64,000 bases of DNA from Desulfosudaceae bacterium (GCA_963674745.2 CAXXDV010000003.1:2464001-2528000); one strand, 5' to 3'; positions 25,722-62,736 are shown, counted from the stretch's first letter. The notes: a model not told the origin generated them from the sequence alone. Numbers and translations are program-made.

Positions 25722-25778
25722 TTCACAAAATGTCAAATCATATTCACATATGATCAATACATAGGTATTAAATATGGT
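25722..25778 (+). promoter_or_regulatory. Conserved island promoter/operator, copy 1
   Basis: TTCACAAAATGTCAAATCATA-TTCACATATGATCAATAC...TATGGT; 21-bp tandem repeat, -10-like hexamer at +51. Confidence 0.8.
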
Positions 25779-25868
25779 TTACGCTATTTATTCAAAGGGC
25801 CCTTTTTTCCCCTTTTTGAGAACTTCTGTCATGTGCTATTTTCTTTACAACCTGTTTTGAGGAAAACG

Positions 25869-26129
25869 ATGGAATATCAATCAAAGGCAACAGACCTTAT
25901 CAGAAACCGCTGTTCCTGGCGCAGTTTTGGCAGCAGGGCCGTAGAAACGGAAAAAAGAAAGAAACCGGCCGGCAGTGCGGATATGCAGCGCCTTGATATG
26001 GGGATCGCAATGTGTCATTTTGAGCTTGCCGCAGAAGAAGTGAACCTTGAGGGGGAATGGATCGAAACAAAACCGGCTTTGGCATTGCCCAAAAGATGCG
26101 AATATCTGGTGAGCTGGAAGGAAAATTGA
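25869..26129 (+). pseudogene. Internally deleted nitroreductase-family gene
   Basis: N-terminal LIRNRCSWRSF joined almost directly to C-terminal DMQRLDMGIAMCHFELAA; 86 aa, centre missing. Confidence 0.7.
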
Positions 26130-26168
26130 GCAGTACGGCAACAATGCCTGAACTTCGGGAGGAAAAAA

Positions 26169-28565
26169 ATGGCTTTAGAAAAAAAACATGTCGTCTGCAG
26201 CATGTGTGATCAGGCCTGCAGCCTGGAAGCCCATGTCAGGGACGGACGATTGGAAAAACTACGCGGGTTTTCAGACCACCTGATGATGCCCAAAACCATT
26301 TGCTGCAAACCGGTCTATGCCGCTGAATGGTATTACAATGAACACCGCCTGAAATATCCCTTGAAACGAACCGGAGAAAGAGGCAGCGGCCAGTGGACCC
26401 GCATCAGCTGGGACCAGGCCATGGATGAAATCGCGGCAAAGCTTCAAAAGGTGGTTGATCAACATGGGCCGGAAGCTTTTGCCTGCTCCACCTCGGATCA
26501 TAATCTCCAGATGGGCAGCGGCATGGTCCGGCGGTTCATGAACCTTTTGGGAAGCCCGAATTACATCAGCGGCGTAAGCCTTTGCCAGGGCAATACGGCT
26601 GCCGTCAACAGCATGACCTGCGGCGGTTATCCTTTTCCGGATTATGAACAGACCCGCTGTATGGTATTTTTCGGGCATAATCTCCGGCCGAATTCCTGGG
26701 CCGGCGAATACTATCGTCTGAAAGCGGCCAGGGCCAGAGGCGCCAGGCTGATTGTTCTGGACCCGAGAAAGAGTCATTGCGCTAAAATGGCCGACATTCA
26801 TCTGCCTTTGCGGGCAGGCACAGACGCGGCCATGTGCCTGGGCTGGATCAACGTTATTATTGAAGAAGAGCTGTACGAAAAGAAATTCGTATCCCGCTGG
26901 TGTGTGGGTTTTGATGAACTCAAAGAACGGGCCAAAGAATACCCGCTGGATCGGGTGTCCCAAATCACGGGGGTTCCCGCGAACCTGATCCGTGAGGCCG
27001 CCATCATGTATGCCACCAACACGCCGGCCATTATTCCCTGGACATGTGCTACCGACCAGCAGCTGAACAGCACTTCCGCCCTGCGCTGCCAGGCCATACT
27101 GCGGGCATTGACCAACAGCCTGAATGTTCCCGGAGGGGACGTCCTGGTCGACCCCAACAAGATGATCATATCCGAGTCGGAACTGGAACTCCACGAACGG
27201 CTGCCCCAGGAAAAAAAAGACCTGCAGCTGGGGGCAAAGGATTATCCGGTCATGACCTATTGGGGGCAGCAGGCCTTAAACGAGCCCCGGCGCAGGGTAT
27301 GGGGCCATCCCTACCGGAACCTGATGAAAGGCATGTACATGGCCCACCCTCCGGCTGTATTTAAAGCCATGCGGGAGGGCGTTCCCTACCCGGTAAAAGC
27401 CCTTTTCTCCATCGCCAACAACACCCTCATGTGCTACACCAACCAGCAGGGCATTTTCGAGGCCATTAAGAATCTTGACCTGTTTGTGGTCAATGACCTG
27501 TTCATGACGCCCACCGCCCAAATGGCCGACTACGTGCTTCCAGGCGACTGTTTTCTGGAACGGCCTGTCCTGTACAATTATCAGGAGTGGCTCAGTACCT
27601 ATTCGAGTTTCGAAAAAGCCGTTGAACCACCCGGTGAGTGCAGGGATGTGTATTATTTCCTGCGCGAACTGGCCGTGCGTATGGGCATGGAAGAACACTT
27701 CCCCTGGAAGAACGTTGAAGAACTTTACGAATGCCGGATCTCCGGGACCGGGCTTACCTGGAAGGCGCTTTCAAAAAACCTTCCTTTTCTAACGGCACCC
27801 GCTCCTCCAATGCCTCCCGGCGCAATGAAGCTTACCCTGAAACTCTTTTCCAAAATGGGCCTTTTGCCGTTATTAAGAAACGGTATGACTTCCATGTTGC
27901 GCCAACACCAGAAAACCCGGGAGTTTTTTGAACGCCGCGGCATGAAACGTATGGCCCGCCTTTTCAGGGATAATTTTGTGCTCGTTCCCTACCCGCACGA
28001 AAAACGGGGCTTTGCCACCCCCAGCGGGAAAGTGGAGCTGTATTCCAGTGTTTTGGAATCCATTGGCTGCGACCCGCTTCCCTACTGGAAGGAGATTTAT
28101 CCCCCGGACGAAAACCCGTCGGAAGAAGAATATCCGCTCCGCCTTTTTGTCGGCCTGCGTGAAGATGGATATTTTCTCTCTGCCGGACGCCATGTCAAAA
28201 AACTGCGCCAACGCAACCCCGAACCACAGGCCATGATGAATACCCAAACCGCCCGAAAATCCGGCATCAATGATGGTGACTGGATTTATGTGGAAACCGA
28301 CTGGGGCAGGACAAAAATGAAAGCACAGCTGAGCGAGGACATACAAAAGGACCTGGTCGGGGTCCGCCACGGATGGTGGAAGCCGGAAATGGCCCCTGGC
28401 ACCCCTGAACTCTGCGGGGCCTGGGATTACTCGGACGGCGTCCTGCTAAACGATGATCCGGCGTTTTTTGACCCGGAACAGGGCCTGCCCGACCTGCGCG
28501 GCGCCAGGAAGTGCCGGGTAATGCCGATGGAAAATTTGCCTGAAAAAGAGGAACAGCAGGCGTAA
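26169..28565 (+). CDS. Acetylene hydratase-like W/Mo-bisPGD enzyme (DMSO reductase family)
   Basis: KKHVVCSMCDQAC...ICCK [4Fe-4S] motif, RRFMNLLGSPN...CQGNTA, ATPSGKVELYSS, GLRED, DPEQGLPDLRG closely track the Pelobacter acetylenicus acetylene hydratase sequence as recalled; no Tat signal. Confidence 0.82.
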   Translation: MALEKKHVVCSMCDQACSLEAHVRDGRLEKLRGFSDHLMMPKTICCKPVYAAEWYYNEHRLKYPLKRTGERGSGQWTRISWDQAMDEIAAKLQKVVDQHGPEAFACSTSDHNLQMGSGMVRRFMNLLGSPNYISGVSLCQGNTAAVNSMTCGGYPFPDYEQTRCMVFFGHNLRPNSWAGEYYRLKAARARGARLIVLDPRKSHCAKMADIHLPLRAGTDAAMCLGWINVIIEEELYEKKFVSRWCVGFDELKERAKEYPLDRVSQITGVPANLIREAAIMYATNTPAIIPWTCATDQQLNSTSALRCQAILRALTNSLNVPGGDVLVDPNKMIISESELELHERLPQEKKDLQLGAKDYPVMTYWGQQALNEPRRRVWGHPYRNLMKGMYMAHPPAVFKAMREGVPYPVKALFSIANNTLMCYTNQQGIFEAIKNLDLFVVNDLFMTPTAQMADYVLPGDCFLERPVLYNYQEWLSTYSSFEKAVEPPGECRDVYYFLRELAVRMGMEEHFPWKNVEELYECRISGTGLTWKALSKNLPFLTAPAPPMPPGAMKLTLKLFSKMGLLPLLRNGMTSMLRQHQKTREFFERRGMKRMARLFRDNFVLVPYPHEKRGFATPSGKVELYSSVLESIGCDPLPYWKEIYPPDENPSEEEYPLRLFVGLREDGYFLSAGRHVKKLRQRNPEPQAMMNTQTARKSGINDGDWIYVETDWGRTKMKAQLSEDIQKDLVGVRHGWWKPEMAPGTPELCGAWDYSDGVLLNDDPAFFDPEQGLPDLRGARKCRVMPMENLPEKEEQQA

Positions 28566-28585
28566 ACATTTTTTTGGAGGCGTCC

Positions 28586-29401
28586 ATGACCCAGCGCTTT
28601 AAAGATAAAACAACCATAATTACCGGCGCGTCTTCAGGGATTGGCGCGTCTGCCGCCAGGCAGTTTATCATAGAGGGTGCCAATGTTGCCCTTATTGCCC
28701 GCAACAAAGACAATCTTGATAAAATAGTTGAGCAAATGGGCAGTGAAAAGGCCATTGCCATTTCTGCGGACGTCACGGATCTTGATAAAATGTCAGCCGT
28801 TCTTCAACAGGTGAAAAAACATTTCGGCGCCATTCACATACTGGTCAATAACGCCGGCTTCAACTCCAGGGGTCCGATAGACACCCGGCCGCTGGATGAA
28901 GTGCTGCACATAGTTGACCTGAACTTAAGGTCACCGATAGCGCTTACCAGGCTTGTACTGCCGCTAATAAAAGAAGCCGGAGCCGGAGCCGTGGTAAATG
29001 TCGCTTCGCTGGCGGGTCGATATCCCCTGCCGGATGAGGCGACCTACAGTGCAACAAAATTCGGGTTAAGGGCCTTTACCTATGCCCTGGCAGAAGAAAA
29101 CAGGGGGACAGGGGTGACGGTTTCCGTTGTCTCTCCCGGCCCGGTAGATACAGGGTTTATTATGGAAGATATTGATGACGTTCCGGACCTTGTTTTTTCA
29201 CAACCCATGAGTTCCCCCGAACAGATCGCCGCTGCTATTCTGGATTGCGCCTGTGACGGGAAGGTGGAAAGGGCAATACCCAGGTTAAGCGGTTATTTAA
29301 CCACAGCAGGTTATCTCTTTCCCGGCCTTCAGCGAAAGTTAAGGCCTATATTAAAAAGGAAAGGGCGTAAAAACAAGTTGAGATATAAGGCCAGGGCTTA
29401 A
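28586..29401 (+). CDS. SDR oxidoreductase
   Basis: TGASSGIG, NNAG, YSATK; ATG 28586 after GGAGG. Confidence 0.9.
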   Translation: MTQRFKDKTTIITGASSGIGASAARQFIIEGANVALIARNKDNLDKIVEQMGSEKAIAISADVTDLDKMSAVLQQVKKHFGAIHILVNNAGFNSRGPIDTRPLDEVLHIVDLNLRSPIALTRLVLPLIKEAGAGAVVNVASLAGRYPLPDEATYSATKFGLRAFTYALAEENRGTGVTVSVVSPGPVDTGFIMEDIDDVPDLVFSQPMSSPEQIAAAILDCACDGKVERAIPRLSGYLTTAGYLFPGLQRKLRPILKRKGRKNKLRYKARA

Positions 29402-29480
29402 TTATGGTTTACGTTGTTTGTTCAAATGCCCTTTCTTTTTAAACATTTACCCTTATCCTTTAAAAAAGTGTGGTTGAGTA

Positions 29481-29955: not shown

Positions 29956-30343
29956 CGTCCGTTATCTGGTGGTGGGCGGATATGCCGTGGCTTTTCACGG
30001 TTACCCCCGGTACACCAAGGATCTGGATGTCTGGATCGACCGGACCCCGGAGAACGCTGCTTGCCTTATGAAGGCGCTGACCGCCTTCGGGTTCGGCTCG
30101 GTTGGTCTCACAGTTGATGACTTTCTCCGGGAAGACTATGTCATTCAACTCGGATACCCGCCCAACCGTATCGACATCCTGACCAGCATCAAGGGGCTCG
30201 TGTTCGTTGAATGTTATGGCGCCGGAGTCCAGGAGGAAATCGGCGCTGTTACAGTCAACTTCATCGATATCGACAACCTGAAAAAAAACAAACAAGCCAG
30301 TGGCCGGCCCCAGGATCTGGCGGACATCGAAAATCTGAAATAA
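29906..30343 (+). CDS. Nucleotidyltransferase (DUF6036-like)
   Basis: YLVVGGYAV..HG..R.TKDLD, NK.ASGRPQD..D; start set at ATG 29906. Confidence 0.8.
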   Translation: MLSRDFIEFIESLNSHSVRYLVVGGYAVAFHGYPRYTKDLDVWIDRTPENAACLMKALTAFGFGSVGLTVDDFLREDYVIQLGYPPNRIDILTSIKGLVFVECYGAGVQEEIGAVTVNFIDIDNLKKNKQASGRPQDLADIENLK

Positions 30344-31314
30344 TGAATGTAGATAGCCTTAACGGGTTGGTGGCTATTTTGCCGACACCATTTACCGATG
30401 ACGGTAAAATCGACGAAAACGGTTTAAAGCAACTGGTCAGAGCCGCCATTGAGAAGCAGCTTGATGGTGTTGTCGTTCTGGGAAGTAATGCAGAGTTTCC
30501 CTATCTCCGTTTTGAAGAAAAAATACAGGTCATGGAAATTGCCGCTTCGGCAGCAAACGGAAAAATCCCTGTTATTGGTACGGCATCGGCCTGGAGTACA
30601 GATCAGGCGATTGATCTTGCAAAAGAGGCAAAAGCAGCAGGCTGCGATGCGCTTATGGCGGCGTTACCCGTTTATTTCAACCTTGACTTGAAAAATGTTG
30701 TGCACCATTTTAAATCCCTCACCAAAGCAATGGACCTGCCCGTTTATTACTACCATTTTCCTGATGTAACCGGTTTGAAAATACGGCCAAAAGACCTTGC
30801 CCGGATTGCGGAAATCGATGGCATTGTCGGGACAAAACTGACCGTTATGAACCGCCCGTTTTTAAAGAAAACGATTGACGCCACACGGCCTTATGACTGG
30901 AAAGTGTTTACCGGGGCATCATTGCTTCTTTATGACTGTCTCGAATTTGGTGGTGCCGGTGTGTTTTGTCCGATACCGCTTGTCGGGACTGAGGATGTCA
31001 GGATGTTATGGGACGCTTTTTCCTCGGGTGATTATAAAAAAGCAAAACAGATTCAGAAGAAACTGCTCAAAACGATCCCCCTGTTCACCGGTTCTTCACT
31101 GCCACCTGCAATTCTATCTCTCGGCTTTCAGTTTATGGTTCGACTGCCTTTTTTATCGGGCAAAAGACCTTTTGCCACTCACGGGTTATTGAAAGAAGCT
31201 TTGAGATTGCAGGGATATCTGGCCAGCAACAAAGTGAGAAGACCCCATGTTGAAGTCAGTCAGGCAGAGCAAAAGCTTGTTGAAAAAACACTGGCGTCGT
31301 TTGGGTGGCTATAG
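30343..31314 (+). CDS. DapA/NanA/HOGA family class I aldolase
   Basis: LPTPF, LGSNAEF, YYYHFP, GIVGTK Schiff-base Lys; true start ATG 30343. Confidence 0.85.
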   Translation: MNVDSLNGLVAILPTPFTDDGKIDENGLKQLVRAAIEKQLDGVVVLGSNAEFPYLRFEEKIQVMEIAASAANGKIPVIGTASAWSTDQAIDLAKEAKAAGCDALMAALPVYFNLDLKNVVHHFKSLTKAMDLPVYYYHFPDVTGLKIRPKDLARIAEIDGIVGTKLTVMNRPFLKKTIDATRPYDWKVFTGASLLLYDCLEFGGAGVFCPIPLVGTEDVRMLWDAFSSGDYKKAKQIQKKLLKTIPLFTGSSLPPAILSLGFQFMVRLPFLSGKRPFATHGLLKEALRLQGYLASNKVRRPHVEVSQAEQKLVEKTLASFGWL

Positions 31315-31345
31315 GAAGGGGACCGGGTCGGGCCAGGCGAATACA

Positions 31346-32506
31346 TTATGGAATCGGCGATAATTTTTCAATATAATCAGAATTTAATTTATTAATGTCA
31401 TTACACCCGATCAATGCCATTACCCGTTCCATTTCTTCTTTCAAGATCGAAAGCGCCCTGTCTACCCCTTTTTCTCCCCCGGCGGCCAATCCATATAAAT
31501 AGGCCCTGCCAATCATGCAGGCATCGGCGCCCAGGGCGATCGCTTTAATAATATCAGACCCTCTGGTAATGCCGCCGTCAATCAGTATCTCGAGTTGATC
31601 CTTTACGGCCTCTTTTACCTTTGGTAAAAGTTCTAAAGCCGTGGGGGCGCCGTCCAGCTGCCGGCCGCCATGATTCGATAACACGATGCCGCTGGCACCG
31701 ATATCAACGGCCTTTTTTGCATCTTCTACCGATTGTATTCCTTTTAAAAGGAAGGGGCCGTCACCCCAGTAGTCTTTTATTTCTCTGGCATCTTTCCATG
31801 AAACAGACGGATCGTACTGGCCATTAATTGTATCAACTACTTTTTGCACATCACCGCCATGGGGTAAATACCCGGTCATATTTCCCATAACCAGTTTGGG
31901 AGATGTTAAAAACCGGAATAACCATTCTGGTCTTGCGAGAGAGGATAAAACCATGTTTATTTTTAAGCGGGGGGTTCCATGACCGTGATGAATATCACGT
32001 TCTCTTTTACCCAGAACCGGTGAATCTACCGCTAAATAAATACCCTTGTACCCGGATGTTTTGCAGCGGTCTAAAAACCTGTACACCCAGTCCCTGTTAT
32101 GCCAGATATATATCTGAAAAAACAAGTCCCCGGTTGATACGGCTGCCGTATCTTCTATAGAAGTAGTAGAAACGGTTGACAGGGTATAGGGAATCTGGGC
32201 TTTACTGGCAGCTTTGACAACCGCTTGTTCGCCTTTATAGTGGAAGAGACGGGAAAATCCGGTAGGCGCCAGGATTACAGGCAGCGCGCTATCCCTGCCA
32301 TTTATCCTGGTTTGCAGGTTAATTGTCGTAACATCTTTCAATACGCTTGGCCGAAAACCATATGTTCTGAAAACCGAACTGTTCCGCTGCATTGTAATTT
32401 CATCTTCAGCCCCGCCGTCAATGTAGTCGAAAGTGATACGTGGAATACTTTTTTTGGCAAGAGTCCGTAAATCATTTATGGAAACACAACGATCAACATT
32501 TTTCAC
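31346..32506 (-). CDS. FMN-dependent alpha-hydroxy acid dehydrogenase/oxidase (LldD family)
   Basis: FDYIDGGAEDE, LAPTG, FQIY, SNHGGRQLD, DGGI.RG.D. Confidence 0.92.
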   Translation of the reverse strand: MKNVDRCVSINDLRTLAKKSIPRITFDYIDGGAEDEITMQRNSSVFRTYGFRPSVLKDVTTINLQTRINGRDSALPVILAPTGFSRLFHYKGEQAVVKAASKAQIPYTLSTVSTTSIEDTAAVSTGDLFFQIYIWHNRDWVYRFLDRCKTSGYKGIYLAVDSPVLGKRERDIHHGHGTPRLKINMVLSSLARPEWLFRFLTSPKLVMGNMTGYLPHGGDVQKVVDTINGQYDPSVSWKDAREIKDYWGDGPFLLKGIQSVEDAKKAVDIGASGIVLSNHGGRQLDGAPTALELLPKVKEAVKDQLEILIDGGITRGSDIIKAIALGADACMIGRAYLYGLAAGGEKGVDRALSILKEEMERVMALIGCNDINKLNSDYIEKLSPIP

Positions 32507-32885: not shown

Positions 32886-33500
32886 CTAACCTACATCAAT
32901 ACTTCTAAAGCCGCTTAACTTCTCCAGTCTTCCAAGAAAATGATAGGCAAACCCGAATGGTTTGAATCGAACACCCAGCATGCTGAAACTGATCAGCTCG
33001 ATAATTGTTTGGGTTTCAGAGAGTGTATCCATATAGGCAAAATCAACAGCAATAGGCCATGTTTGTATTTTCCCTCTTACCCAAGTGGGATACCCTGCTG
33101 CGTTCAAACTTTCCATTTCTTTATCAACATCTTTAACTAAGAGCCCCAGGTGCTGAGCCACTGTCCTGCCTTCAGGATCAAGGCTTTGCTTGTAAAAGTC
33201 TGAGCCTTCACCCGGCTCAAGAAGTTCGAGGTCAACCCCCTGATATTTGGCCAGACCGACCTTCCCGCGAAAGCTTCTCGGTGTACCGTGCTCATCCCAT
33301 CGCGCGAGGCTACCGGCTGAAATGAAAAACGGCCCGATTCCCATCATTTCAAGCCGTTTAGCAGCTTCTTCCACGTCTGGCACTACCAGGCCGAGTTGAT
33401 GTATTTGAGGCAGGCTGTGTTTCTCTCGAAATTCGGCTGCAAGGTTATTGACAGATTTTTTAAAGTTCTCTGCCGCAAGCAGGTCGTCTAAAAGCAACAT
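32886..33500 (-). CDS. VOC/glyoxalase-like (methylmalonyl-CoA epimerase-like) protein
   Basis: HQLGLVVPD, LELLEP, QHLGLLV, IIELI. Confidence 0.78.
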   Translation of the reverse strand: MLLLDDLLAAENFKKSVNNLAAEFREKHSLPQIHQLGLVVPDVEEAAKRLEMMGIGPFFISAGSLARWDEHGTPRSFRGKVGLAKYQGVDLELLEPGEGSDFYKQSLDPEGRTVAQHLGLLVKDVDKEMESLNAAGYPTWVRGKIQTWPIAVDFAYMDTLSETQTIIELISFSMLGVRFKPFGFAYHFLGRLEKLSGFRSIDVG

Positions 33501-33611: not shown

Positions 33612-34646
33612 TTAATTTAGGTTCTCCAGAGTCCGGGCGATTATAATATTCACGACCCTGTCGTTTATTTCCCCTTCACTTATTACTAATTCATAGAGTT
33701 CCAGATCATCTATAAGCGCACTGATGAACTTTTCATCTGAAACCGCTTTTGCCAGTATCGTTTTGTCTTTACGGTCTGCAATATGGGTTTCAACAAGTTT
33801 GGCAAACATGGGAGTTTTAACGTATTTTTTTGTAATAGCCCTTGCTGTTTTCTTCGTGCCTTCTTTTGAAGGACCGGATTCAATTGCGATCATCATTAAC
33901 TCGTTATCTGAAGTAAGAAAATCAAGGATCGCTTCATCCTTATATGTCTGCTTTGCACGATTTCGTATGCTCGTTCGGGCCACGTCAATATTATCAGGAT
34001 GTAATGGGTCAGCATTATAATATTTATCGTTTTTAACAAATTCTTCCAGGTTTTCTAATATCTTGCGGGGGATCTTTGCCAGCTCACCATTCACCATAAA
34101 TGCTTTCAGGTTGCCCCCTGTTTCCAAATGGATGGAAAATATAACCTCGGTTTTATCATGGGCTTTATAAGACATGTTAATCTGTTGATACATTTTGGGA
34201 AGGCGCACATATTCCTCTTTATCCGGTATTTCAGGATCAGTAATGAGTTGTGATGTTGTCGTTATGTCACCGGTTTCAAGGGCAACAGAAGTCTTCGCAC
34301 TGATAATGGCATCCCGGTCATCTGCCGGCCAGGGGAAGTCCATGACCATGTACAGATCCATGTCATTCGAGTTGTATTGCCTGAGAACTTTTGAGCTTAT
34401 TACGCCATCCATCCATTCCTTCATTACCGGTGTGTCCCTAAGGACTGCACCGATCGCTGCCATGCTGGCATTGATAACTGCAGTGGCCTTGAATGCCTTG
34501 TATCTCGAGCCTTCAACATCTCGTGAGTAGGTTATGATACCATCATTATCTTTTTCAATTTCCCAATCAACAGCACCTGTTGCCGGCTGCAAAAGAAGCG
34601 CTAAGGTAAAACAAATGATACCTGTGTATACGCTTAAATTTTTCAT
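33612..34646 (-). CDS. Secreted START-domain lipid-binding protein
   Basis: Signal peptide; W.IEKDNDGI..YSR, KAFKA, W, FPWPADDRD START motifs; helical C-terminal extension. Confidence 0.75.
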   Translation of the reverse strand: MKNLSVYTGIICFTLALLLQPATGAVDWEIEKDNDGIITYSRDVEGSRYKAFKATAVINASMAAIGAVLRDTPVMKEWMDGVISSKVLRQYNSNDMDLYMVMDFPWPADDRDAIISAKTSVALETGDITTTSQLITDPEIPDKEEYVRLPKMYQQINMSYKAHDKTEVIFSIHLETGGNLKAFMVNGELAKIPRKILENLEEFVKNDKYYNADPLHPDNIDVARTSIRNRAKQTYKDEAILDFLTSDNELMMIAIESGPSKEGTKKTARAITKKYVKTPMFAKLVETHIADRKDKTILAKAVSDEKFISALIDDLELYELVISEGEINDRVVNIIIARTLENLN

Positions 34647-45517: not shown

Positions 45518-45518
45518 C

Positions 45519-48545: not shown

Positions 48546-48687
48546 ACCGGGATGGCACAGTTAGGGCTATGAATAGATTTCCGGACGATTTCCGAGGTCA
48601 GTATATCTAATTCAATCTATTAACAGCGAAAATTAGTCAACTAACAAAGGCTCATTTTTGATTCTTAACATATTTACAGGGGGGATT

Positions 48688-54578: not shown

Positions 54579-55649
54579 ATGGAGAAAACAAGAATGGTAA
54601 GTAAAATCATGGTACTGTCATTACTAACCCTGTTTATGCTTGCTCAGTCAGCCATTGTTTTTGGATCGGCCCCGCCGCCGCCTGCACCTACCGGCACCGT
54701 TGAACAACCGGCCACAGGATATGGCTCAAACGGCCCGTATGGCGTCGGCCACAAATCTTTCTGTAACACCAGGGACTTGACCAAGAAAGTGCACATTTTT
54801 TATCCGATTGGCGCAACCCCGGCACCAACGATATTCTTTTCTCATGGTTATACGGGCAGCGACCCGAAATTCTATCAGGCAATGATCGATCATTTTGTCA
54901 GCAACGGGTATTCTGTGGTTTTTCCAAATACGGGTGAAATTGGAATCGTCATATATCCACTCTGGGTTTTTCATACCTACGAGCTTTTCTGGCACGGAAT
55001 GGAACAGGCCGCCAGAAATTACAGCCATCTGATCGACACGGATAAAGTCGGGTTCATCGGGCATTCATTGGGTGCCGGCGCAGTCCCATGGCTTTGCTAT
55101 AAGGGGGCGCAAGAGGGCTGGGGAGACGAAGGGCTATTCATGATTCAATGCGCGCCATGGTACACGTATAATATGAGTGATTGTGAACTGGCCAGCTTTC
55201 CTCCCCACACTAAATATCTGTGCATGAATTATGAAGACGATACAACCAATGACCACCGGATGGGTATCGATATATTTAATCATATAAACATTACCGACCC
55301 GGAAAAAGATTATATCCTGTATCACAGCAGTTCAAATTGTTCTGCCAGCATGGCAGCAGATCACAATTTAATCGTCAGCGAGGATAATGATGGCCCATGC
55401 CTAGATGGCCTGGATTATTATTCGTGGCGGCATATGGATGCCTTAGCCGATTATGCATTTACAGGCAGCCCCGAAGCCTGGGAGATCGCCCTTGGAAATA
55501 ACAGCGATGCCCAAAGATACATGGGGGAATGGACATGTGACGGAACACCTGCAAGAAAGTGCAGCGTAACCGATTACCCGGTCCCATCTAAAGACCAGAC
55601 AGCATATTTGTTCTGGTGGTCCGGTATTTTAAATCCAAGAAATTATTAA
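54579..55649 (+). CDS. Secreted cutinase/chlorophyllase-like alpha/beta hydrolase
   Basis: Signal peptide + PPPP, GPYGV, HGYTG, GHSLG, APW, Cys-rich; ATG 54579. Confidence 0.75.
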   Translation: MEKTRMVSKIMVLSLLTLFMLAQSAIVFGSAPPPPAPTGTVEQPATGYGSNGPYGVGHKSFCNTRDLTKKVHIFYPIGATPAPTIFFSHGYTGSDPKFYQAMIDHFVSNGYSVVFPNTGEIGIVIYPLWVFHTYELFWHGMEQAARNYSHLIDTDKVGFIGHSLGAGAVPWLCYKGAQEGWGDEGLFMIQCAPWYTYNMSDCELASFPPHTKYLCMNYEDDTTNDHRMGIDIFNHINITDPEKDYILYHSSSNCSASMAADHNLIVSEDNDGPCLDGLDYYSWRHMDALADYAFTGSPEAWEIALGNNSDAQRYMGEWTCDGTPARKCSVTDYPVPSKDQTAYLFWWSGILNPRNY

Positions 55650-55688
55650 TGAAAAGATAAAAACGCTGATAATCAAAGGAGAAAAGTT

Positions 55689-57035
55689 ATGATTGAATTC
55701 AGCAGAATACGGTTTGGTTTGGTTTTTGCCGTTGTTTTTTGTGTGTTGTTGAGCGGTTGCAAAATCAGCGGTAATGTCAGGGATAACGGGGTTGGTTTAC
55801 AAGGCATCACCGTTACCCTTACCGGCAAGCCGGACAGGCCGACCAATATTGATCATCTCATCACAACAACGGATAGTCGCGGATACTTTGAGTTTGATGA
55901 AATACCGGATGGAGATTATATCGTTACGCCTTCAAAAGAGGGAATGATCTTTGAACCACCACAGCGAAAAGTCTTCTTAACCAATAAAGAACCAGAAGAG
56001 AACCTGACCTTTGAAGCGATCAAAAGCTCGGGCCCCATGAATTTCTACTATGGCAACCTGCATAGCCACTCGAGCTATTCAGATGGTGAGGGTACAGCAG
56101 CCCAGGCTTTTGCCTGGGCAAGGGATAAAGCCGGGCTCGATTTTTATGCCATCACAGATCATGCTTTCATGTTGGTCCACGATACCAACATCGATTTTAA
56201 CCTGGTTGATGAATGGGCTGATGTCAAAAGACAGGCCGATATTTTTTCGCAACAGGATGTATTTGTCGGCATCATCGGCTTTGAATGGAGTCACCCTTTA
56301 CTGGGGCATGTATGTGTTTATGGAACAGAAGATTATACCACTTTTCTCTTAACCGGTGATATGTATTGGTTCTACAGGTGGCTGGCGGAACGGCCCGAAG
56401 CCCTGGCCCAGTTCAATCACCCCGGAAGAGAACCATTGAAATTCAATTGTTTTGCCCTTGAAACAGACGTCCAGGATAATATGTGCGCCCTTGAAACCGG
56501 GAATAAGGATGTCGGCAATAATGACGAAGAATACCTGAACTATTATCACGAGGTGCTTGATAAAGGCTGGAAGGTCGCCCCCACCAGCAACCAGGACAAT
56601 CACAGCCTGGCAACAAATTCTCACCGCACCGTAGTGATTGCACGGGAACTCAGCCGTGATGGAATTTCAGAAGCCATGCGGTCACGCCGCATGTATTCAT
56701 CCGACGATCCCAACATAAAGATTACATATCACTATCAAGACAAATGGATGGGATCGGAAATCGCGGTTGACGCCGCCGCCGTCACGCTCACCATAAACAT
56801 CGAAGACGATGAGCCCATTACCAAAGTTCAACTGATTACCAACGGGGGAAGAATTATTCAGGAAATAACCCCGGCAGCAGGGCAGACAGCCGTGTCCTGG
56901 AATCCGACCGTGATGCTGGGCGGGACAGAATGCTATTTTTATGTTCAGGTTACCGAACAAAATGAGCTTGATGATGATGAGGGCAACACCGAGCAAATTG
57001 CGGTTTCAGCCCCTTTATGGTTCACGCCTATCTAA
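55689..57035 (+). CDS. Lipoprotein, CehA/McbA-like PHP metallohydrolase with N-terminal prealbumin-like domain
   Basis: LSGC lipobox, GNLHSHSSYSDG, ITDH, GFEWS, GH, NHP, DNH. Confidence 0.8.
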   Translation: MIEFSRIRFGLVFAVVFCVLLSGCKISGNVRDNGVGLQGITVTLTGKPDRPTNIDHLITTTDSRGYFEFDEIPDGDYIVTPSKEGMIFEPPQRKVFLTNKEPEENLTFEAIKSSGPMNFYYGNLHSHSSYSDGEGTAAQAFAWARDKAGLDFYAITDHAFMLVHDTNIDFNLVDEWADVKRQADIFSQQDVFVGIIGFEWSHPLLGHVCVYGTEDYTTFLLTGDMYWFYRWLAERPEALAQFNHPGREPLKFNCFALETDVQDNMCALETGNKDVGNNDEEYLNYYHEVLDKGWKVAPTSNQDNHSLATNSHRTVVIARELSRDGISEAMRSRRMYSSDDPNIKITYHYQDKWMGSEIAVDAAAVTLTINIEDDEPITKVQLITNGGRIIQEITPAAGQTAVSWNPTVMLGGTECYFYVQVTEQNELDDDEGNTEQIAVSAPLWFTPI

Positions 57036-57057
57036 TTGTCAATAACCGGTTTAGCAA

Positions 57058-57095
57058 AGGAAAAAGGGCGATGCCAGGCACCGCCCTTTTTTTCC
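57058..57095. terminator. Intrinsic terminator
   Basis: AAAAAGGGCG...CGCCCTTTTTTT. Confidence 0.75.
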
Positions 57096-57103
57096 CTATC
57101 AAT

Positions 57104-57481
57104 ATGACACGGAAACCAATCCGGCAAAAAACCAGATGCATTACCCAGTACGGGATGATTGCCGTTTGTGAAAACCATCCGATGTTTATCGGAGAGGTTC
57201 TTGATATCAGCGCGGAAGGTATGGCCATCAAATGCTTTATTAAACCTGTTGTTAAGCACCGGAACAGGCGTATCCGTCTGATGGGGCCTAAAGGAATAAA
57301 AATTGAGGATATTCCCGCAGAAATCGTATATATTTCAAAAACACCTTTTATTCCTGCCAATAACAAGCAGGATAAAGATCGTTTCTATCGGGTAGGTATA
57401 CGTTTAGCGCCAAAAACAGGACAGGCAGATAAAATCCATCAATTGATTGACGTGATCAGAAAAATGGGCATACCGTCATAA
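57104..57481 (+). CDS. PilZ-domain protein
   Basis: RQKTR (RxxxR) and DISAEG (DxSxxG) motifs. Confidence 0.65.
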   Translation: MTRKPIRQKTRCITQYGMIAVCENHPMFIGEVLDISAEGMAIKCFIKPVVKHRNRRIRLMGPKGIKIEDIPAEIVYISKTPFIPANNKQDKDRFYRVGIRLAPKTGQADKIHQLIDVIRKMGIPS

Positions 57482-57485
57482 CGGA

Positions 57486-58712
57486 ATGTCGAAACGGTAC
57501 AAACCAATGAGCAGAGAAAACTACAAACTGTTTTCTGAGGGTCGGTTAGGCGGCCTGTCTGTCAAAAATCGCCTGGTCCGATCGGCTACGTATGAGGCGT
57601 GTGCTACTGACGCCGGAAGCGTGACCGAAAAGATGCTCTGCTTGTACAAAGACCTGGCCGCAGGAGGGGTTGGGACGATTATCACCGGTCACATGGCGGT
57701 CTGTCTTTCCGGCAGGGCGATGCCCCGGCAAACCTGCATTCACTCCGATGCTTTTATTGACGACCTGGCCCGGTTGGCTGAAGCGGTTCATAATCAGGGC
57801 GATAACTGCAAGGTGATCGCGCAGTTAAGCCATTGCGGCAGGCAGGTGACCCATCACAACCATGAGGCTGAATGTGTCGGGCCGTCCGAAGTGCCCAGTC
57901 CCCTCCTCAGAAAACAGTGCCGGAAGCTCACCACTAAAGAAGTTAAAAAGGTTATTCAGGACTTCGCAGCGGGTATTGAGCGGGTCAAAAAGGCAGGCTT
58001 TGATGGGGTTCAGCTGCACGCAGCCCACGGCTGGCTGTTGAGTTCGTTTATGTCTCCCTACACAAACCGCCGTAAAGATGAGTACGGCGGTTCTTTAAAA
58101 AACAGGACAAGAATCGTCCGGGAAATTGCGGCCTCGGCCCGAAAAAAAACAGGCGACTTTCCTTTGCTTATCAAGATAAACGCAACCGATTATATAGATG
58201 GCGGGATCAGCGAGAATACTTTTCCGGAACTGGCCCGGGAAGTAAAAGCCTCTGGATTCGACGCCATTGAGGTAAGCGGCGGCATGTGGGATTGCCTTGT
58301 CCGCACAGAAGCGGAACTCGGATTTCGGCCGATGCCCATACCTGAAGCCCACACCAGAATAAGCAGCCCCGAAAAGCAATCCTATTTTTCTAAGGCGGTT
58401 GAATCGCTCCATCTCGACAAACCGGTCATCCTGGTCGGGGGAAACAGAAATGCAGACCGCCTGGAAGAACTGTTGCAAACCAGCGCTGTTGACTTTATTT
58501 CTCTATCCAGACCGTTGATTTCAGAGCCGGATTTGCCCAGGCGCTGGCTTGAAGGAAAAGGCAGTCCCGGCACGGATTGTGTCTCATGCAATTCATGCCT
58601 TCAGACGATATCCGCCGGGGGCAGCCTCGAATGCATGCTTAAACAAAACCGGATTAAACAGGAAATCGTCAGGCGCTTTGCTCCAAAACTCTGGAAATTC
58701 TTATTGAAGTAA
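57486..58712 (+). CDS. NADH:flavin oxidoreductase (Old Yellow Enzyme family)
   Basis: KNRLVRSAT, QLSHCG, FDGVQLHAAHGWLL, NRR.DEYGG, CVSCNSC. Confidence 0.92.
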   Translation: MSKRYKPMSRENYKLFSEGRLGGLSVKNRLVRSATYEACATDAGSVTEKMLCLYKDLAAGGVGTIITGHMAVCLSGRAMPRQTCIHSDAFIDDLARLAEAVHNQGDNCKVIAQLSHCGRQVTHHNHEAECVGPSEVPSPLLRKQCRKLTTKEVKKVIQDFAAGIERVKKAGFDGVQLHAAHGWLLSSFMSPYTNRRKDEYGGSLKNRTRIVREIAASARKKTGDFPLLIKINATDYIDGGISENTFPELAREVKASGFDAIEVSGGMWDCLVRTEAELGFRPMPIPEAHTRISSPEKQSYFSKAVESLHLDKPVILVGGNRNADRLEELLQTSAVDFISLSRPLISEPDLPRRWLEGKGSPGTDCVSCNSCLQTISAGGSLECMLKQNRIKQEIVRRFAPKLWKFLLK

Positions 58713-59099: not shown

Positions 59100-59453
59100 A
59101 TGAGGTTAAAGATTCTACTGTTGGGCCTGTACTGGTTGCTCTGGTTTTCTTCCAAGACCAACGCCTCTTTTAAGCAGTTTATCCGCAAGGCCAAGGTCCG
59201 GTTTATGATCCGGACAGAAGACGGTCGGTATGCCCGGCTGTTTGTGTTCGACCAGGGCAAAGTCACCACTGCCGTGGGCCCGGACCATCCTTTTGACGCG
59301 GCCCTGACCTGGAAGGACGCCAAAACAGCTTTTTCCACTATGTTAAAGCAGAACATGGAGGCGTTTTTCTACGCTGCCGCAGACGGAAAACTGAGAATAG
59401 AGGGGATGCCTGTGTATGCCCAGTGGTTTGATGCGGCGATGAAGCATATCTGA
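59100..59453 (+). CDS. SCP2-like (sterol carrier) small protein
   Basis: G.V....D..L.W.D...A...GKLRIEG pattern. Confidence 0.6.
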   Translation: MRLKILLLGLYWLLWFSSKTNASFKQFIRKAKVRFMIRTEDGRYARLFVFDQGKVTTAVGPDHPFDAALTWKDAKTAFSTMLKQNMEAFFYAAADGKLRIEGMPVYAQWFDAAMKHI

Positions 59454-59500
59454 AAATTCCATATTTAATCATCACAGATAAGAGAGAAGAGGAGAGTCAC

Positions 59501-61168
59501 ATGTCAAAGATGTCCGGCGGTCACCTGGTGGCAAAGTATCTGAAAGAAGCAGAAAGCATAACCCACGTGTTCACCCTGTCAGGTGGCCACATTGAGGCCA
59601 TCCTGGACGGCATGACCGAGTACAACATCACCGCCATCGATGTCCGCCATGAACAGGTTGCCGCCATGATGGCCCATGCCTGGTCGGTTTATACCAATAC
59701 ACCCGGCGTCTGCCTGGTCACGGCCGGGCCGGGGTTCACCAATGCCCTCACCGGCATCGTCAATGCCCACCTGGAAAATGTTCCCCTGGTGGTGCTTTGC
59801 GGCCGGCATCCCATCCGGGACGATCTGAAAGGTGCCCTGCAGGAGATGAATCAGATCGACATGGTCAAGCCCGTTACCAAGTGGAGTGCCACCTGTTATG
59901 ATGTCCGGCGCATACCCGAATATCTGTCCATTGCCTTTCGACAGGCCACCATGGGGCGGCCCGGCCCGGTTTTTCTGGAGCTGCCGCCGGATATCCTGTT
60001 TGCTGAAATCGACAGCAGCAGTGCGTCCATACTTCCCAGGCGAAAGCACAAAACCGCAGTTCAGCCGGTAGCAAACGACCTGGAAGCTGCCGCCCGAATC
60101 ATCAACAGCGCTAAAAAGCCGGTTTTTCTGGGGGGCAGCGGCATTGGTTTGAGTGATTGCGGTCCGGCTATGCAGGCGTTTATTGAAAAAACCGGCATTC
60201 CTTTCGGCTTGATCAACTACGGCCGGGGGATGCTGCCGGATGATCATCCGCTTTCCTTGAGCGAAAGCGGGTTTACGGGCATTGCTTCGGGCCTGCCGGT
60301 GGCCGATGTTGTTGTCGCCGCGGGTGTCCGGTTCAACTGGGTGATGCAGTCGGGACAGCTGTTCCCGGATGCGAAGGTTGTCAGGATCGACATCGATCCC
60401 CATGAGCTTGATCGCAACCAGACCGCCACAGTCGGGCTGGAAGGCGACGCCGGGGTAGTGCTGGATCAGCTGCTGCCGCTGGTGGAAAAAAAAGACCATA
60501 CCGAATGGGTGGATACCTTCAAGCGGGCTTCGGCCGCCTTCATGGTCACGGAACTTGAGAAACGGCAGAAACCGTCCGACCCCATTCATCCCTCGCGCCT
60601 GGTGGAACAGGTCATGAGTGTGTTCGGCACTGATGCCTATTATGTGGCTGACGGCGGTGACACCACCTATTACGGCCTGTCCGGGTTTTCTTCCGTCCAC
60701 CGGGCAGGTGTTCTTATCCCTGCCGGCGGCCTGCTGGGCTGTCTCGGTACCGGTATCCCGTTCGCCCTGGCCGCGAAACTGGCCCATCCGGACAAGCCGG
60801 TCATTGTGCTGAACGGGGACGGTTCCTTTGGATTCAACGGCATGGAATTTGACACGGCCGTGCGCCACAATATTCCCATTATCTGTGTGGTCAATAATGA
60901 CTGTGCCTGGGGTATGATCAAACACGCCCAGGAAATCAGCCTGGGCCATGACCGTTGCACCTGCACTGATCTGGGAATGCGTCATTATGAAAAAATGGTG
61001 GAAGGCCTGGGCGGTTACGGTGAACTGGTCACCAAAGACGAGGAGATCGTTCCCGCTCTTAAGCGGGCCGCGGCATCCGGAAAACCGGCCTGCATCAACG
61101 TGGTCACCGATCCGACCGTGACCAGCCAGGCCACCATCATGTTTTATCAGAGTTTTGGTGAGTTGTAA
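59501..61168 (+). CDS. TPP-dependent enzyme, 2-hydroxyacyl-CoA lyase/IlvG-like
   Basis: GGHLVA..L...VFTLSGGHI, RHEQ, TAGPG.TN, GDGSFGFNGMEF...NN. Confidence 0.85.
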   Translation: MSKMSGGHLVAKYLKEAESITHVFTLSGGHIEAILDGMTEYNITAIDVRHEQVAAMMAHAWSVYTNTPGVCLVTAGPGFTNALTGIVNAHLENVPLVVLCGRHPIRDDLKGALQEMNQIDMVKPVTKWSATCYDVRRIPEYLSIAFRQATMGRPGPVFLELPPDILFAEIDSSSASILPRRKHKTAVQPVANDLEAAARIINSAKKPVFLGGSGIGLSDCGPAMQAFIEKTGIPFGLINYGRGMLPDDHPLSLSESGFTGIASGLPVADVVVAAGVRFNWVMQSGQLFPDAKVVRIDIDPHELDRNQTATVGLEGDAGVVLDQLLPLVEKKDHTEWVDTFKRASAAFMVTELEKRQKPSDPIHPSRLVEQVMSVFGTDAYYVADGGDTTYYGLSGFSSVHRAGVLIPAGGLLGCLGTGIPFALAAKLAHPDKPVIVLNGDGSFGFNGMEFDTAVRHNIPIICVVNNDCAWGMIKHAQEISLGHDRCTCTDLGMRHYEKMVEGLGGYGELVTKDEEIVPALKRAAASGKPACINVVTDPTVTSQATIMFYQSFGEL

Positions 61169-61204
61169 GCAGTTCATATATACATGACGCCTGGAGGACG
61201 AGAC

Positions 61205-62032
61205 ATGCCGGGAGTAAAAGATTTGCGGGATAAGGTGGTGGTGGTGACCGGCGCCGGCAGCGGGATCGGCCGTGCTACGGCCAATGCTTTTGCCGGTGAA
61301 AAGGCCAGGCTGGTGATTGCCGACATCAACCGGGAACGGCTGGACGATACGGAAAAGGAACTACAGGAAAAGGGTGTTCAGGTATCGATCTTTGAAATTG
61401 ATGTTTCTGACAAGTCACAGGTGGCCGATCTGGCGCAGTTCACCCTGGATACATACGGCCGGGTGGACATTATTCATAACAATGCCGGAATCGGCTGGGG
61501 CGGCCCCATGGAAGTTTATCCCCTGGAAAACTGGGAGAAGATTGTGGGGGTCAATTTCTGGAGCGTGGTTTACGGGGTGCATTATTTTTTACCGCATCTG
61601 ATCAGGCAGCGCTCGGGTCATATCGTCAATACCTCCAGCGCGGCCGGTTACTGGGGGGGGCCTGGTTTGAGCGCCTACACCGCCACCAAGCACGCCATTG
61701 TCGGCCTTTCAGATGTGCTGCGTGCGGAAGTCCGGCGATACAATATCGGCGTTTCCACCATTTGCCCTGGGATTATCAAGACCAGCATCGTGCATGACGG
61801 CAAACAGACGTTGCTGCCGACCGCCAAGCTTGACCAGAAAAATATGGCTGCGTTTTACGACCGTTTCGGCTGGTCTCCGGACCGGGTGGCCCGGGCAGTG
61901 ATAAAAGCGGTCAAAAAAAACCGGGGACTGGTGCCTGCCGGGCCGGAAGCCTGGCTGATGTGGTATTCCAAGCGGCTTTCCGAAACCGCCTATAACCTTT
62001 TTCTGCGGTTCGGTGCCCGGACCGCCTGGTAA
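61205..62032 (+). CDS. SDR oxidoreductase
   Basis: TGAGSGIG, NNAG, YTATK, CPG; ATG 61205 after GGAGG. Confidence 0.9.
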   Translation: MPGVKDLRDKVVVVTGAGSGIGRATANAFAGEKARLVIADINRERLDDTEKELQEKGVQVSIFEIDVSDKSQVADLAQFTLDTYGRVDIIHNNAGIGWGGPMEVYPLENWEKIVGVNFWSVVYGVHYFLPHLIRQRSGHIVNTSSAAGYWGGPGLSAYTATKHAIVGLSDVLRAEVRRYNIGVSTICPGIIKTSIVHDGKQTLLPTAKLDQKNMAAFYDRFGWSPDRVARAVIKAVKKNRGLVPAGPEAWLMWYSKRLSETAYNLFLRFGARTAW

Positions 62033-62239
62033 TCAGGGCAGCCTGTTCGATAGGTGTAGCGGAGGGCTTCACAGGCTGTCCAATAACTCAGAACATTCGT
62101 CATTCCTGGCCCAAAAAGCGTCCAGCGTCCTGGCAATGCCTGAAGAAACGCACCCTTTTTCCGCTAAAATAACAATGTCCACCATGATTCACCTTTTATA
62201 TCGCCGAATGTTTTTTTTGACATGAAATATGTCAATCTC

Positions 62240-62736
62240 TCCCCTTTTGAGAACTTCTGTCATGGGCTATTTTTTTACAACCTGTTTTGAGGAGGGATGC
62301 GATGGACTATCAATCAAAGGTGACAGACCTTATCAGAAACCGCTGTTCCTGGCGCAGTTTTGGGGACCGGGCCGTAGAAACGGAAAAAAGAAAGAAACAG
62401 AACCGGATTTAGCATTGCCCAAAAGATGTGAGTATCTGGTGAGCTGGAAGGGGATTTGAACAGTACGGCGACAATGCCTGAACTTCGGGAGCAAGAAAAA
62501 ATGCCTTTGGAAAAAAAACATGTCGTATGCAGCATGTGTGATCAGGCCTGCAGTCTGGAAACGCATGCCAGGGACGGACGGTTGGAAAAACTGCGCGGGT
62601 TTGCAGACCATCTGTTGATGCCCAAGACCATTTGCTGCAAACCCGGGGAGGCTGCTAAATGGTTTTACAATGAACATCGCCTGCTATACCCCTTGAAACG
62701 AACCGGAGAAAGAGGCAGCGGTATGGTCAGGCGGTT
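62240..62736 (+). pseudogene. Decayed duplicate of 25808-26536 (nitroreductase remnant + 5' part of the acetylene hydratase-like gene)
   Basis: Clear nucleotide similarity; MPLEKKHVVCSMCDQAC at 62501; two internal deletions; truncated. Confidence 0.9.

Follow-up and report, generated by a model that had tools for sequence, protein, structure and literature searches.

Examination of a 64,000-nucleotide stretch from a Desulfosudaceae bacterium (GCA_963674745.2, CAXXDV010000003.1:2464001-2528000; hereafter the window, numbered from its first letter) points to a cluster of about 37 kb, at positions 25722 to 62736, that is best regarded as a genuine, co-regulated and recently assembled catabolic island. 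New here are a promoter cassette with a shared operator in five copies, two sigma-54 promoters with a common 18-mer, a homologue of acetylene hydratase (AH) with an altered pocket and a core of four genes retained elsewhere. To the fuller picture, an accessory catabolic island under two layers of regulation that would serve a Desulfosudaceae-like anaerobe in using a hydrophobic ester-type substrate, we give roughly even weight; O2-independent breakdown of a fatty, ester-linked or otherwise hydrophobic ester-type compound is plausible from the gene content.

Five operator cassettes and a sigma-54 module

A promoter cassette of about 100 nt occurs five times in the cluster, each copy with a 36-bp direct-repeat operator whose core reads TTCACA-N4-GTCAA-N5-ATTCAC-N3-TG-N-TCAA (Table 1). 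This core has five mismatch-free matches, against 0.00 expected from 100 shuffles; all are located inside 25.7-58.9 kb and each is oriented to the gene downstream of it, namely g02, g12, g14, g15 or g29. The operator comprises two 15-bp direct-repeat half-sites 21 bp apart, the proximal of which adjoins a region devoid of a good -35 hexamer, and such a half-site layout is usual for AraC/XylS-dependent promoters. The cluster encodes an AraC-family regulator, g13, which combines an N-terminal ligand-type domain (Arabinose_bd, 7.7e-35) with a C-terminal double helix-turn-helix (HTH_18, 3.1e-17; both Pfam). Judging from these features, g13 would bind the two 15-bp repeats of each operator, most likely as an activator, and would switch on five units: (i) the AH-like, short-chain dehydrogenase/reductase (SDR) and aldolase genes behind cassette P1; (ii) the genes from the acetoacetate decarboxylase (ADC)-like protein through the VOC protein, and possibly the FMN dehydrogenase gene too, behind P2; (iii) the membrane protein g14 behind P3; (iv) two SDRs, g17 and the Rieske, cytochrome b, pentahaem cytochrome and flavoprotein genes behind P4; and (v) the SCP2-like protein, the thiamine diphosphate (ThDP) enzyme and another SDR behind P5. 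For the five AraC-type units, the shared operators are best read as a sign of co-regulation and hence of a common purpose.

AraC/XylS-type activator-dependent catabolic operons offer the general class for comparison. Likenesses include the ligand domain with a double helix-turn-helix, direct-repeat half-sites two helical turns apart, a poor -35 region and a regulator gene divergent from a target promoter, whereas here five whole cassettes of about 100 nt are spread over 33 kb and a second, sigma-54-dependent layer is found in the same cluster. A role of the cassette as a 5' RNA element or riboswitch was considered and rejected: Rfam gave no match in the window and RNAalifold, applied to six cassettes, gave -3.8 kcal/mol and no compensatory pairs, from which the cassette would act as DNA. 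A downstream leader, ATTGGAATAAG(G/C)A, is common to P4 (40920-40941), P5 (58911-58932) and the cassette of a related locus, L002 (L002:2870-2897), which suggests that P5 arose by copying of the g15 promoter together with its leader. A 12-nt palindrome with GC-rich flanks, ATTTCATGAAAT, was also observed at 25671, 40775 and 54517 (three copies against 0.40 expected), twice upstream of AraC-type operators and once between a sigma-54 promoter and the g25 start.

The second layer comprises g24, a putative sigma-54 enhancer-binding protein (Sigma54_activat, 8e-66, Pfam), and two promoters that flank its divergent gene. The site at 49714, the only perfect -24/-12 match of the window, is located 84 nt before the likely g23 start, and the site at 54453, with one mismatch, 111 nt before the likely g25 start; an identical 18-mer precedes both by about 90 nt (two matches against 0.01 expected). 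The elements of a sigma-54-controlled operon are all present, with an AAA+ enhancer-binding protein, -24/-12 promoters, candidate activator sites upstream and rpoN in the window. It is predicted that g24 would activate both promoters, one for g23 and the other for the operon g25-g28, whose first two products are exported hydrolases. In that operon, g25 has just weak cutinase/PETase-like matches, g26 is a lipoprotein and a CehA/McbA-type PHP metallohydrolase (117.7 bits against a curated NCBIfam cutoff of 80), g27 is a small protein and g28 is an OYE ene-reductase, while a PDB sequence search with g23 returned no matches. The proteins g23 and g25 have no mutual blastp match at E<=1e-3, yet their N-termini are alike, with a very similar signal peptide and then a poly-proline linker (49813-49930 and 54579-54700). 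Five operator cassettes and two sigma-54 promoters tie most of the genes into two regulatory modules, in agreement with their treatment as a functional unit in the first-pass annotation of this DNA.

An acetylene-hydratase-like enzyme with an altered pocket

The gene behind P1, g02, encodes a bis-molybdopterin guanine dinucleotide (bis-MGD)/[4Fe-4S] enzyme with Molybdop_Fe4S4, Molybdopterin and Molydop_binding domains (Pfam). Its best solved relative is the acetylene hydratase 2E7Z (E 8e-215, 719 bits), followed by thiosulfate reductase (6e-69), which bears out the W/Mo hydratase-like enzyme proposed by the first-pass annotation. To our knowledge, acetylene hydratase is the sole characterised hydratase of its large family; 2962 relatives at E<=1e-50 were counted among 8000 candidates scored. 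Residues were compared through a pairwise alignment with 2E7Z and an alignment of 40 proteins, and positions are given in 2E7Z numbering. Residues C10, C13, C17 and C45 of g02 align with the cluster cysteines Cys9, Cys12, Cys16 and Cys46, and C139, D14 and K47 with Cys141, Asp13 and Lys48; C9, C12, D13, C16, C46, K48, C141, W179 and W293 are kept in 40/40 relatives. We take Lys48 to be a catalytic residue of acetylene hydratase. Excerpts of PMC12096430 describe Cys141 as a metal ligand and Asp13 as catalytic in that enzyme.

At positions 14, 113, 142 and 472 the Pelobacter enzyme has Ile, Ile, Ile and Trp, whereas g02 (Q15, H111, Q140, F462) has Gln, His, Gln and Phe, as has its 93%-identical relative. 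The other eight long members carry Leu, then Tyr or His, then Met or Phe, then Phe, and the Pelobacter pattern was found in 0/40 of the closest relatives of g02. All four positions belong to a hydrophobic ring of six residues (Ile14, Ile113, Ile142, Trp179, Trp293 and Trp472) that Seiffert in 2007 is said to have described around the acetylene hydratase pocket. Two of the six are kept in g02 (W177 and W291), so that in its pocket g02 departs from acetylene hydratase in the strict sense (EC 4.2.1.112). Ile113, Ile142 and three Trp residues are likewise placed near the active site in excerpts of PMC7970554. Additionally, g02 carries a 68-residue insertion at 543-610, and an insertion of 67-68 residues is present in all ten long members.

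Compared with the enzyme of Syntrophotalea (Pelobacter) acetylenica from which 2E7Z derives, g02 thus has the same family, domain order and cytoplasmic, single-subunit organization, with the [4Fe-4S] cysteines, Asp13, Lys48, Cys141, Trp179 and Trp293 in common, but differs at the four pocket positions and by the insertion after residue 542; moreover, its gene is part of a lipid-type catabolic regulon, whereas the acetylene hydratase gene stands alone. Given the pocket changes, the insertion and the regulon context, acetylene is an unlikely substrate, and g02 appears to represent a new acetylene-hydratase subfamily with a remodelled, more polar pocket.

Other gene products and genomic setting

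A Pfam scan of 37 open reading frames (ORFs) from 25.8 to 64 kb (cutoff E<=1e-3) attributed at least one family to 27 of the 37, and an NCBIfam scan covered 35 ORFs. Every enzyme class named by the first-pass annotation was recovered, save a weak SCP2: of its two lipid carriers, the START protein scores 31.2 bits against a cutoff of 22, while g29 reaches SCP2 at E 0.084, below cutoff, and showed no similarity in BLASTP when compared with a true SCP2 protein from another locus, L010. At the same cutoff the scan returned no Pfam family for acyl-CoA ligases, beta-oxidation enzymes or canonical oxygenases, in agreement with the lack of such genes noted by the first-pass annotation, although the VOC and g17 folds include O2-using enzymes. 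Export signals, lipoboxes and twin-arginine translocation (TAT) motifs were read by eye from the N-termini. Either a signal peptide or a lipobox was recognized on g08 (START), g12 (ADC-like), the two large hydrolases and the PHP hydrolase g26; the flavoprotein g21 combines a TAT motif with a lipobox, and g02 shows no export signal. Hydrolases, START protein and flavoprotein would be exported and hydratase, SDR and lyase cytoplasmic, a split in keeping with the breakdown of a hydrophobic ester.

In the scheme that we propose, exported hydrolases would split an ester-type substrate and so free a hydrophobic alcohol or acid, and the exported START, SCP2-like and ADC-fold proteins would handle the released compound in the periplasm, where the TAT-exported g21 would exchange electrons with the quinone pool via the pentahaem cytochrome and the Rieske/cytochrome b module. 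In the cytoplasm, g02 would hydrate an unsaturated carbon-carbon bond of a molecule larger than acetylene, the SDRs and the ene-reductase would adjust oxidation state, and the ThDP lyase and the pyruvate-type class I aldolase would cleave carbon-carbon bonds. Both the exported/cytoplasmic split and the fit to an anaerobic host lend partial support to the O2-independent upper pathway claimed earlier; that support does not extend to its substrate, to the order of its steps or to a single pathway for all genes, and the cutin acids, sphingoid bases, polyacetylenes and carotenoids put forward as substrates are guesses.

Several products deserve separate mention. The AF2 model of g12 (pLDDT 84) matched ADC 3bgt in Foldseek (E 9e-13) as well as MppR and the aldolase-dehydratase Sbi00515, whereas a PDB sequence search gave no matches. 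Scoring of 367 word-sharing candidates, drawn from 5.8 billion clusters, yielded 15 homologues of g12 at E<=1e-3 (the best at 93% identity, the others at <=54%), by which counts it is a rare family; most homologues have lipoprotein-type N-termini, and Lys146 and Arg55 are invariant. For g17, 26 representatives were found at E<=1e-3 among 1.84 billion; an EthD match is present in 4/13 relatives scanned (three at E<=1e-4), one of the relatives being fused to a SnoaL domain. The g17 model (pLDDT 90) resembles anthrone-oxidase-like proteins, bacterial chalcone isomerase and the chlorite-dismutase/DyP group at 6-12% identity, and g17 could even use O2. In the membrane module, g19 is a cytochrome b fused to a 2x[4Fe-4S] domain and a subunit-IV-like part, and g20 has five CxxCH motifs (pentahaem). 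The 364-nt gap between g20 and g21 contains an 85-codon ORF (46417-46674) directly before the flavoprotein gene, and a 68-codon hydrophobic ORF (32524-32730) separates the FMN-dehydrogenase gene from that of the VOC protein. Among solved structures, the closest to the ThDP enzyme g30 are an actinobacterial 2-hydroxyacyl-CoA lyase (HACL; 2e-78), with oxalyl-CoA decarboxylases similar, and benzaldehyde lyase (2e-71); it scores 341 bits with the NCBIfam HACL model, against a cutoff of 600.

The cluster follows a housekeeping flank (bases 1-21254; pyrBC, kdsA, lptCAB, rpoN, hpf, ptsN, rapZ, gap, tpiA and secG, Pfam) that ends at a tRNA-Leu gene, an integration site on which the island borders. The RpoN protein is 82% identical to one of a Thermodesulfobacteriota metagenome-assembled genome (MAG), 74% to one of a Desulfosudaceae MAG and 71% to that of Desulfosudis oleivorans, which supports an anaerobic, sulfate-reducer-like host; a Desulfosudaceae-like anaerobe, presumably sulfate-reducing, is plausible. 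The last 18-20 nt of the tRNA gene are repeated at 23244-23263 and 25186-25205, bounding two tandem islets of about 1.9 kb each immediately left of the cluster (21350-25205); each islet ends with a tRNA 3'-end copy and a common stretch of about 115 nt. These att-like repeats enclose just the two small islets and not the 37-kb cluster, and Pfam revealed no integrase or transposase family from 21 to 64 kb. In the housekeeping flank, a fused VKOR-thioredoxin/DsbA protein (1123-2280) is encoded beside a long TPR protein.

The boundaries of the cluster are natural ones: 25722 is the start of the first of the five operators and 62736 is just beyond the right flanking repeat. That repeat, which duplicates the first 0.5 kb or so of the cluster in truncated form and is about 90% identical to the left copy, has a 103-nt deletion relative to it, then runs into unrelated sequence, and no operator was found upstream of it. 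The G+C content at third codon positions (GC3) ranges from 0.556 to 0.642 in ten core genes; of 30 genes in the cluster, 17 have lower and 7 higher values. Inside single operons it swings between 0.36 and 0.68, as for g12 (0.363) against the adjoining g11 (0.655). A 162-nt direct repeat, 95% identical between copies at 29479-29640 and 30341-30502, lies either side of g04; the aldolase gene has the second copy as its 5' end, and the duplication looks like an insertion scar within the first operon. An accessory, island-like origin fits the tRNA-Leu gene with its repeated 3' ends, the flanking repeats, the GC3 mosaic and the transposases found near homologues elsewhere.

Table 1. Features of the cluster and its surroundings, in window coordinates.
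Feature	Position	Strand	Basis and remarks
rpoN	14716-16146		Pfam; housekeeping flank
tRNA-Leu(GAG)	21264..21349	+	ARAGORN
Fic-domain protein	21571-22749	-	Pfam; first islet
AAA/DUF4143 ATPase	23659-24882	-	Pfam; second islet
Cassette P1	25699..25806; operator 25722-25757	+	Repeats, pattern match; toward g02
Left flanking direct repeat	25810..26395	+	Leader, nitroreductase-like remnant ORF 25833-26129, first ~76 codons of g02
g02, AH-family bis-MGD/[4Fe-4S] enzyme, 798 aa	26169..28565	+	Pfam, NCBIfam, PDB; no TAT signal
g03, SDR	28574..29401	+	Pfam
g04, weak nucleotidyltransferase-like ORF	29858-30343	+	Pfam; DUF6036, weak
g05, DHDPS/N-acetylneuraminate-lyase-family class I aldolase	30343..31314	+	Pfam, NCBIfam; longest ORF from 30211, likely start M45
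g06, FMN-dependent alpha-hydroxy-acid dehydrogenase (LldD-like)	31346..32506	-	Pfam, NCBIfam
g07, VOC (Glyoxalase_4) protein	32886..33500	-	Pfam
g08, START-domain protein	33612..34646	-	Pfam; N-terminal signal peptide
g09, SDR	34705..35547	-	Pfam; paralogue of g11, 54% aa identity
g10, alpha/beta hydrolase	35570..36610	-	Pfam; partial, below-cutoff UilS lactonase match
g11, SDR	36627..37451	-	Pfam
g12, ADC-fold protein	37490..38332	-	Pfam, AF2, Foldseek; N-terminal signal/anchor
Cassette P2	38386-38482; operator 38411-38446	-	Toward g12
g13, AraC-family regulator (Arabinose_bd + HTH_18)	38561..39610	-	Pfam; longest ORF extends to 39664
Cassette P3	39684-39791; operator 39707-39742	+	Toward g14; ~100 nt upstream of divergent g13
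g14, membrane protein without known family	39944..40744	+	Pfam; atlas search, just unnamed membrane proteins
Cassette P4	40811-40918; operator 40834-40869	+	Toward g15
g15, SDR	40944..41765	+	Pfam; conserved-core gene
g16, SDR	41898..42677	+	Pfam, NCBIfam
g17, tandem ferredoxin-like (EthD-related) protein	42855..43721	+	Homologue search, structure model; conserved-core gene
g18 Rieske (TAT motif), g19 cytochrome b, g20 cytochrome c	43746..46316	+	Pfam, NCBIfam; g20 likely start 45519
g21, TAT-signal flavoprotein with lipobox	46680..48545	+	Amine-oxidase/HpnE/zeta-carotene-desaturase-like; Cys4 rubredoxin-like insert
g22, polytopic membrane protein without known family	48658..49530	+	Pfam
18-mer; sigma-54 -24/-12 site (perfect)	49623-49640; 49714-49729	+	Upstream of g23
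g23, exported lipase-like protein	49813..51876	+	Weak VolA/Pla-1 match, InlB B-repeat
Terminator hairpin after g23	51907-51946	+	Inverted repeat
g24, sigma-54 enhancer-binding protein (AAA+ domain, weak GAF)	52137..54227	-	Pfam
18-mer; sigma-54 -24/-12 site (1 mismatch)	54363-54380; 54453-54468	+	Upstream of g25
g25 exported alpha/beta hydrolase, g26, g27, g28 operon	54579..58712	+	Pfam, NCBIfam, N-termini
Cassette P5	58799-58906; operator 58822-58857	+	Toward g29
g29 small exported protein, g30 ThDP enzyme, g31 SDR	59100..62032	+	Pfam, NCBIfam, PDB; g29 ORF 59100-59453, g31 61184-62032
Right flanking direct repeat	62241..62726	+	Truncated 5' end of second AH-like gene (ORF 62456-62782)

Relatives elsewhere and alternative readings

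A genome scan for the long AH-like subfamily gave 14 loci, all in MAGs and from several phyla, with best segments of 89% identity in Thermodesulfobacteriota, 85% in Spirochaetota, 84% in Syntrophaceae and 72% in Actinomycetota. In L002, the AH-like gene is followed by an AraC homologue on the opposite strand (74%), an operator with one substitution, homologues of the SDR g15 (89%) and g17 (80%) and then unrelated genes; the operator lies between the divergent AraC and g15 homologues. Neither the operator (<=5 substitutions allowed) nor the regulator was found in the other 13 loci, and the exact operator core is present in 0/14. Synteny, together with the operator, is therefore conserved for a core of four genes only (AH-like, AraC, g15 and g17) and in 1/14 related loci, so that the co-occurrence in other genomes expected of the full gene set was not observed at these loci. 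In the window the L002 core order is retained, but additional blocks separate and follow the core genes, three of these blocks being placed behind a cassette copy of their own, and the cluster would have grown by accretion round this core, new blocks being recruited under a copied promoter. Past the core, L002:4723-10814 codes for another Mo enzyme, unrelated to the first (23% identity), a pair of class-III aminotransferases and an amidohydrolase, so that different accessory genes accompany the core there. Transposase genes or fragments (IS91-type, ISL3, rve) adjoin AH-like genes at L001:5-1186, L003:4491-4889 and L010:12397-12795 and 14032-14436, which, with AH-like proteins 72-89% identical across phyla, suggests horizontal spread of the subfamily. 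In L010, from an Actinobacteria MAG, a true SCP2-domain protein (L010:9210-9773, E 3.6e-14) is encoded directly upstream of the AH-like gene, an independent hint that the subfamily may handle hydrophobic substrates.

A literature search revealed no described pathway with this gene set, as the first-pass annotation had maintained. Besides acetylene hydratase itself, the nearest analogies are anaerobic steroid degradation and an acetone-related ThDP enzyme/SDR module. Steroid degradation in denitrifiers also joins SDRs, an ene-reductase, a Mo enzyme, a flavoprotein dehydrogenase and sterol-carrier-type domains to attack a hydrophobic substrate without O2, but the type-II DMSO-reductase alpha-beta-gamma hydroxylase, xanthine-oxidase-type hydratase and FAD_binding_2 dehydrogenase were not found here by Pfam, and the cluster is not that pathway. 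Excerpts of PMC4103992 describe in Desulfococcus biacutus, a sulfate reducer of the same order, an acetone-inducible gene cluster A with a ThDP enzyme, an SDR and a B12 enzyme for O2-independent ketone handling; the COG0028-type ThDP enzyme beside an SDR is a likeness by family only, and no B12 mutase is present in the cluster studied here. The anaerobic benzene 'Magic' clusters (PMC13101534, PMC13416013) were set aside as unrelated gene sets; acetylene hydratase is mentioned once in each, in PMC13101534 within the reference list.

A number of results weigh against a single coherent pathway with the chemistry proposed here. In tblastn of 40 window proteins against the 14 AH-anchored loci, only L002 shares genes beyond the AH-like one, three of them, and no relative of g12 was found in 185,579 representative genomes, where 18 pattern-matching stretches encode none. 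The GC3 swings inside operons indicate mixed gene origins, which do not require one pathway. As to expression, none of the cassettes has a consensus sigma-70 promoter (30 in the region against 26.6 expected), and the total of sigma-54-like matches is not above chance (32 against 35.5 expected). The cluster includes no transporter of known family, nor, by Pfam, any CoA ligase or transferase gene for an HACL-type g30; since CoA-activating genes are lacking in the vicinity, acyloin-type and CoA-dependent lyase activity are equally likely for g30. Finally, hydratase chemistry of g02 is likely but not certain, because AH relatives with other chemistry exist, namely catechol dehydroxylases (excerpts of PMC7028382) and ergothioneine synthase (excerpts of PMC9516567). 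The former, Mo enzymes of Eggerthella and Gordonibacter, are bis-MGD members of the AH clade for which AH is the closest characterised homologue and candidates were collected at >30% identity; on the description in the same excerpts of PMC7028382, many have FeS and anchor partners, none of which adjoins g02, and g02 scores E 8e-215 against AH itself.

Part of this evidence would equally suit a patchwork, in which accessory genes accumulated at a hot spot linked to a tRNA gene, with copied promoters serving several unrelated substrates or detoxification tasks and no single pathway. The mosaic GC3, the internal scars (the duplication at g04, the nitroreductase remnant and the truncated AH copy), the limited synteny and the transposases adjoining AH-like genes in L001, L003 and L010 are in its favour; five cassettes with an identical operator, however, imply selection for common control, and the coherent exported/cytoplasmic split and two separate regulators embedded in the cluster point the same way, which leads us to consider a patchwork rather unlikely. 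The membrane module might instead be respiratory, with g21 as terminal reductase for an unsaturated organic acceptor, fed with quinol via the Rieske/cytochrome b and pentahaem proteins, the other genes preparing the acceptor. Quinol oxidation with reduction of cytochrome c is the normal task of Rieske/cytochrome b complexes, saturases occur within the phytoene-desaturase family and the flavoprotein, cytochrome and bc genes are adjacent and in the same direction. We find a respiratory role improbable nevertheless: the periplasmic organic-acceptor reductases known to us belong to the FAD_binding_2 and not the amine-oxidase family, the direction of electron flow is itself only deduced, and g20 and g21 are separated by the gap with its 85-codon ORF.

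Modification or synthesis of the cell's own lipids or of a secondary metabolite would accord with the natural-product chemistry of the ADC-fold enzymes MppR and Sbi00515 and of tandem ferredoxin-like proteins (anthrone-oxidase-like, PenE), with one weakly mycolate-reductase-like SDR and with the resemblance of the flavoprotein to HpnE and carotenoid desaturases. Pfam revealed no polyketide, non-ribosomal peptide, terpene or fatty-acid synthase in the cluster, however, and three exported hydrolases with substrate-type regulators (AraC with a ligand domain, a sigma-54 enhancer-binding protein) are typical of catabolism, so that a biosynthetic role seems very unlikely. Growth on acetylene with g02 as an ordinary acetylene hydratase is scarcely credible: despite the very strong similarity to 2E7Z and the retained Asp13, Cys141 and Lys48, the near-site changes (I14Q, I113H, I142Q, W472F), the insertion and the lack of the I/I/I/W pattern among the closest relatives argue against it, and exported hydrolases, carriers and SDRs would be needless for acetylene use.

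Within the catabolic island favoured here, a more specific and decidedly speculative reading, to which we attach little probability, is an O2-free route into acetylenic lipids or pigments reaching anoxic sediment, such as acetylenic algal xanthophylls or polyacetylenic fatty esters. The molecule would be delivered by exported esterases and START-type carriers, and the periplasmic desaturase-like flavoprotein would act on its chain; through hydration of a triple bond, internal or substituted, the new AH subfamily would then form a conjugated ketone, which would open the chain to cleavage by hydration, retro-aldol and ThDP chemistry. If true, this would provide a second physiological substrate class for the W/Mo hydratase family and the first anaerobic pathway for such compounds.

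How strict anaerobes attack natural products that are hydrophobic and non-aromatic, in the absence of O2, has been mapped only poorly, and new W/Mo enzyme chemistry is suggested by an AH subfamily whose pocket differs and whose gene here belongs to an inducible catabolic regulon. The cassette copies illustrate how a regulon can grow by re-use of one promoter. Moreover, five identical operators and an adjacent regulator provide a practical handle, and a cassette-g13 reporter would be the shortest route to the substrate.

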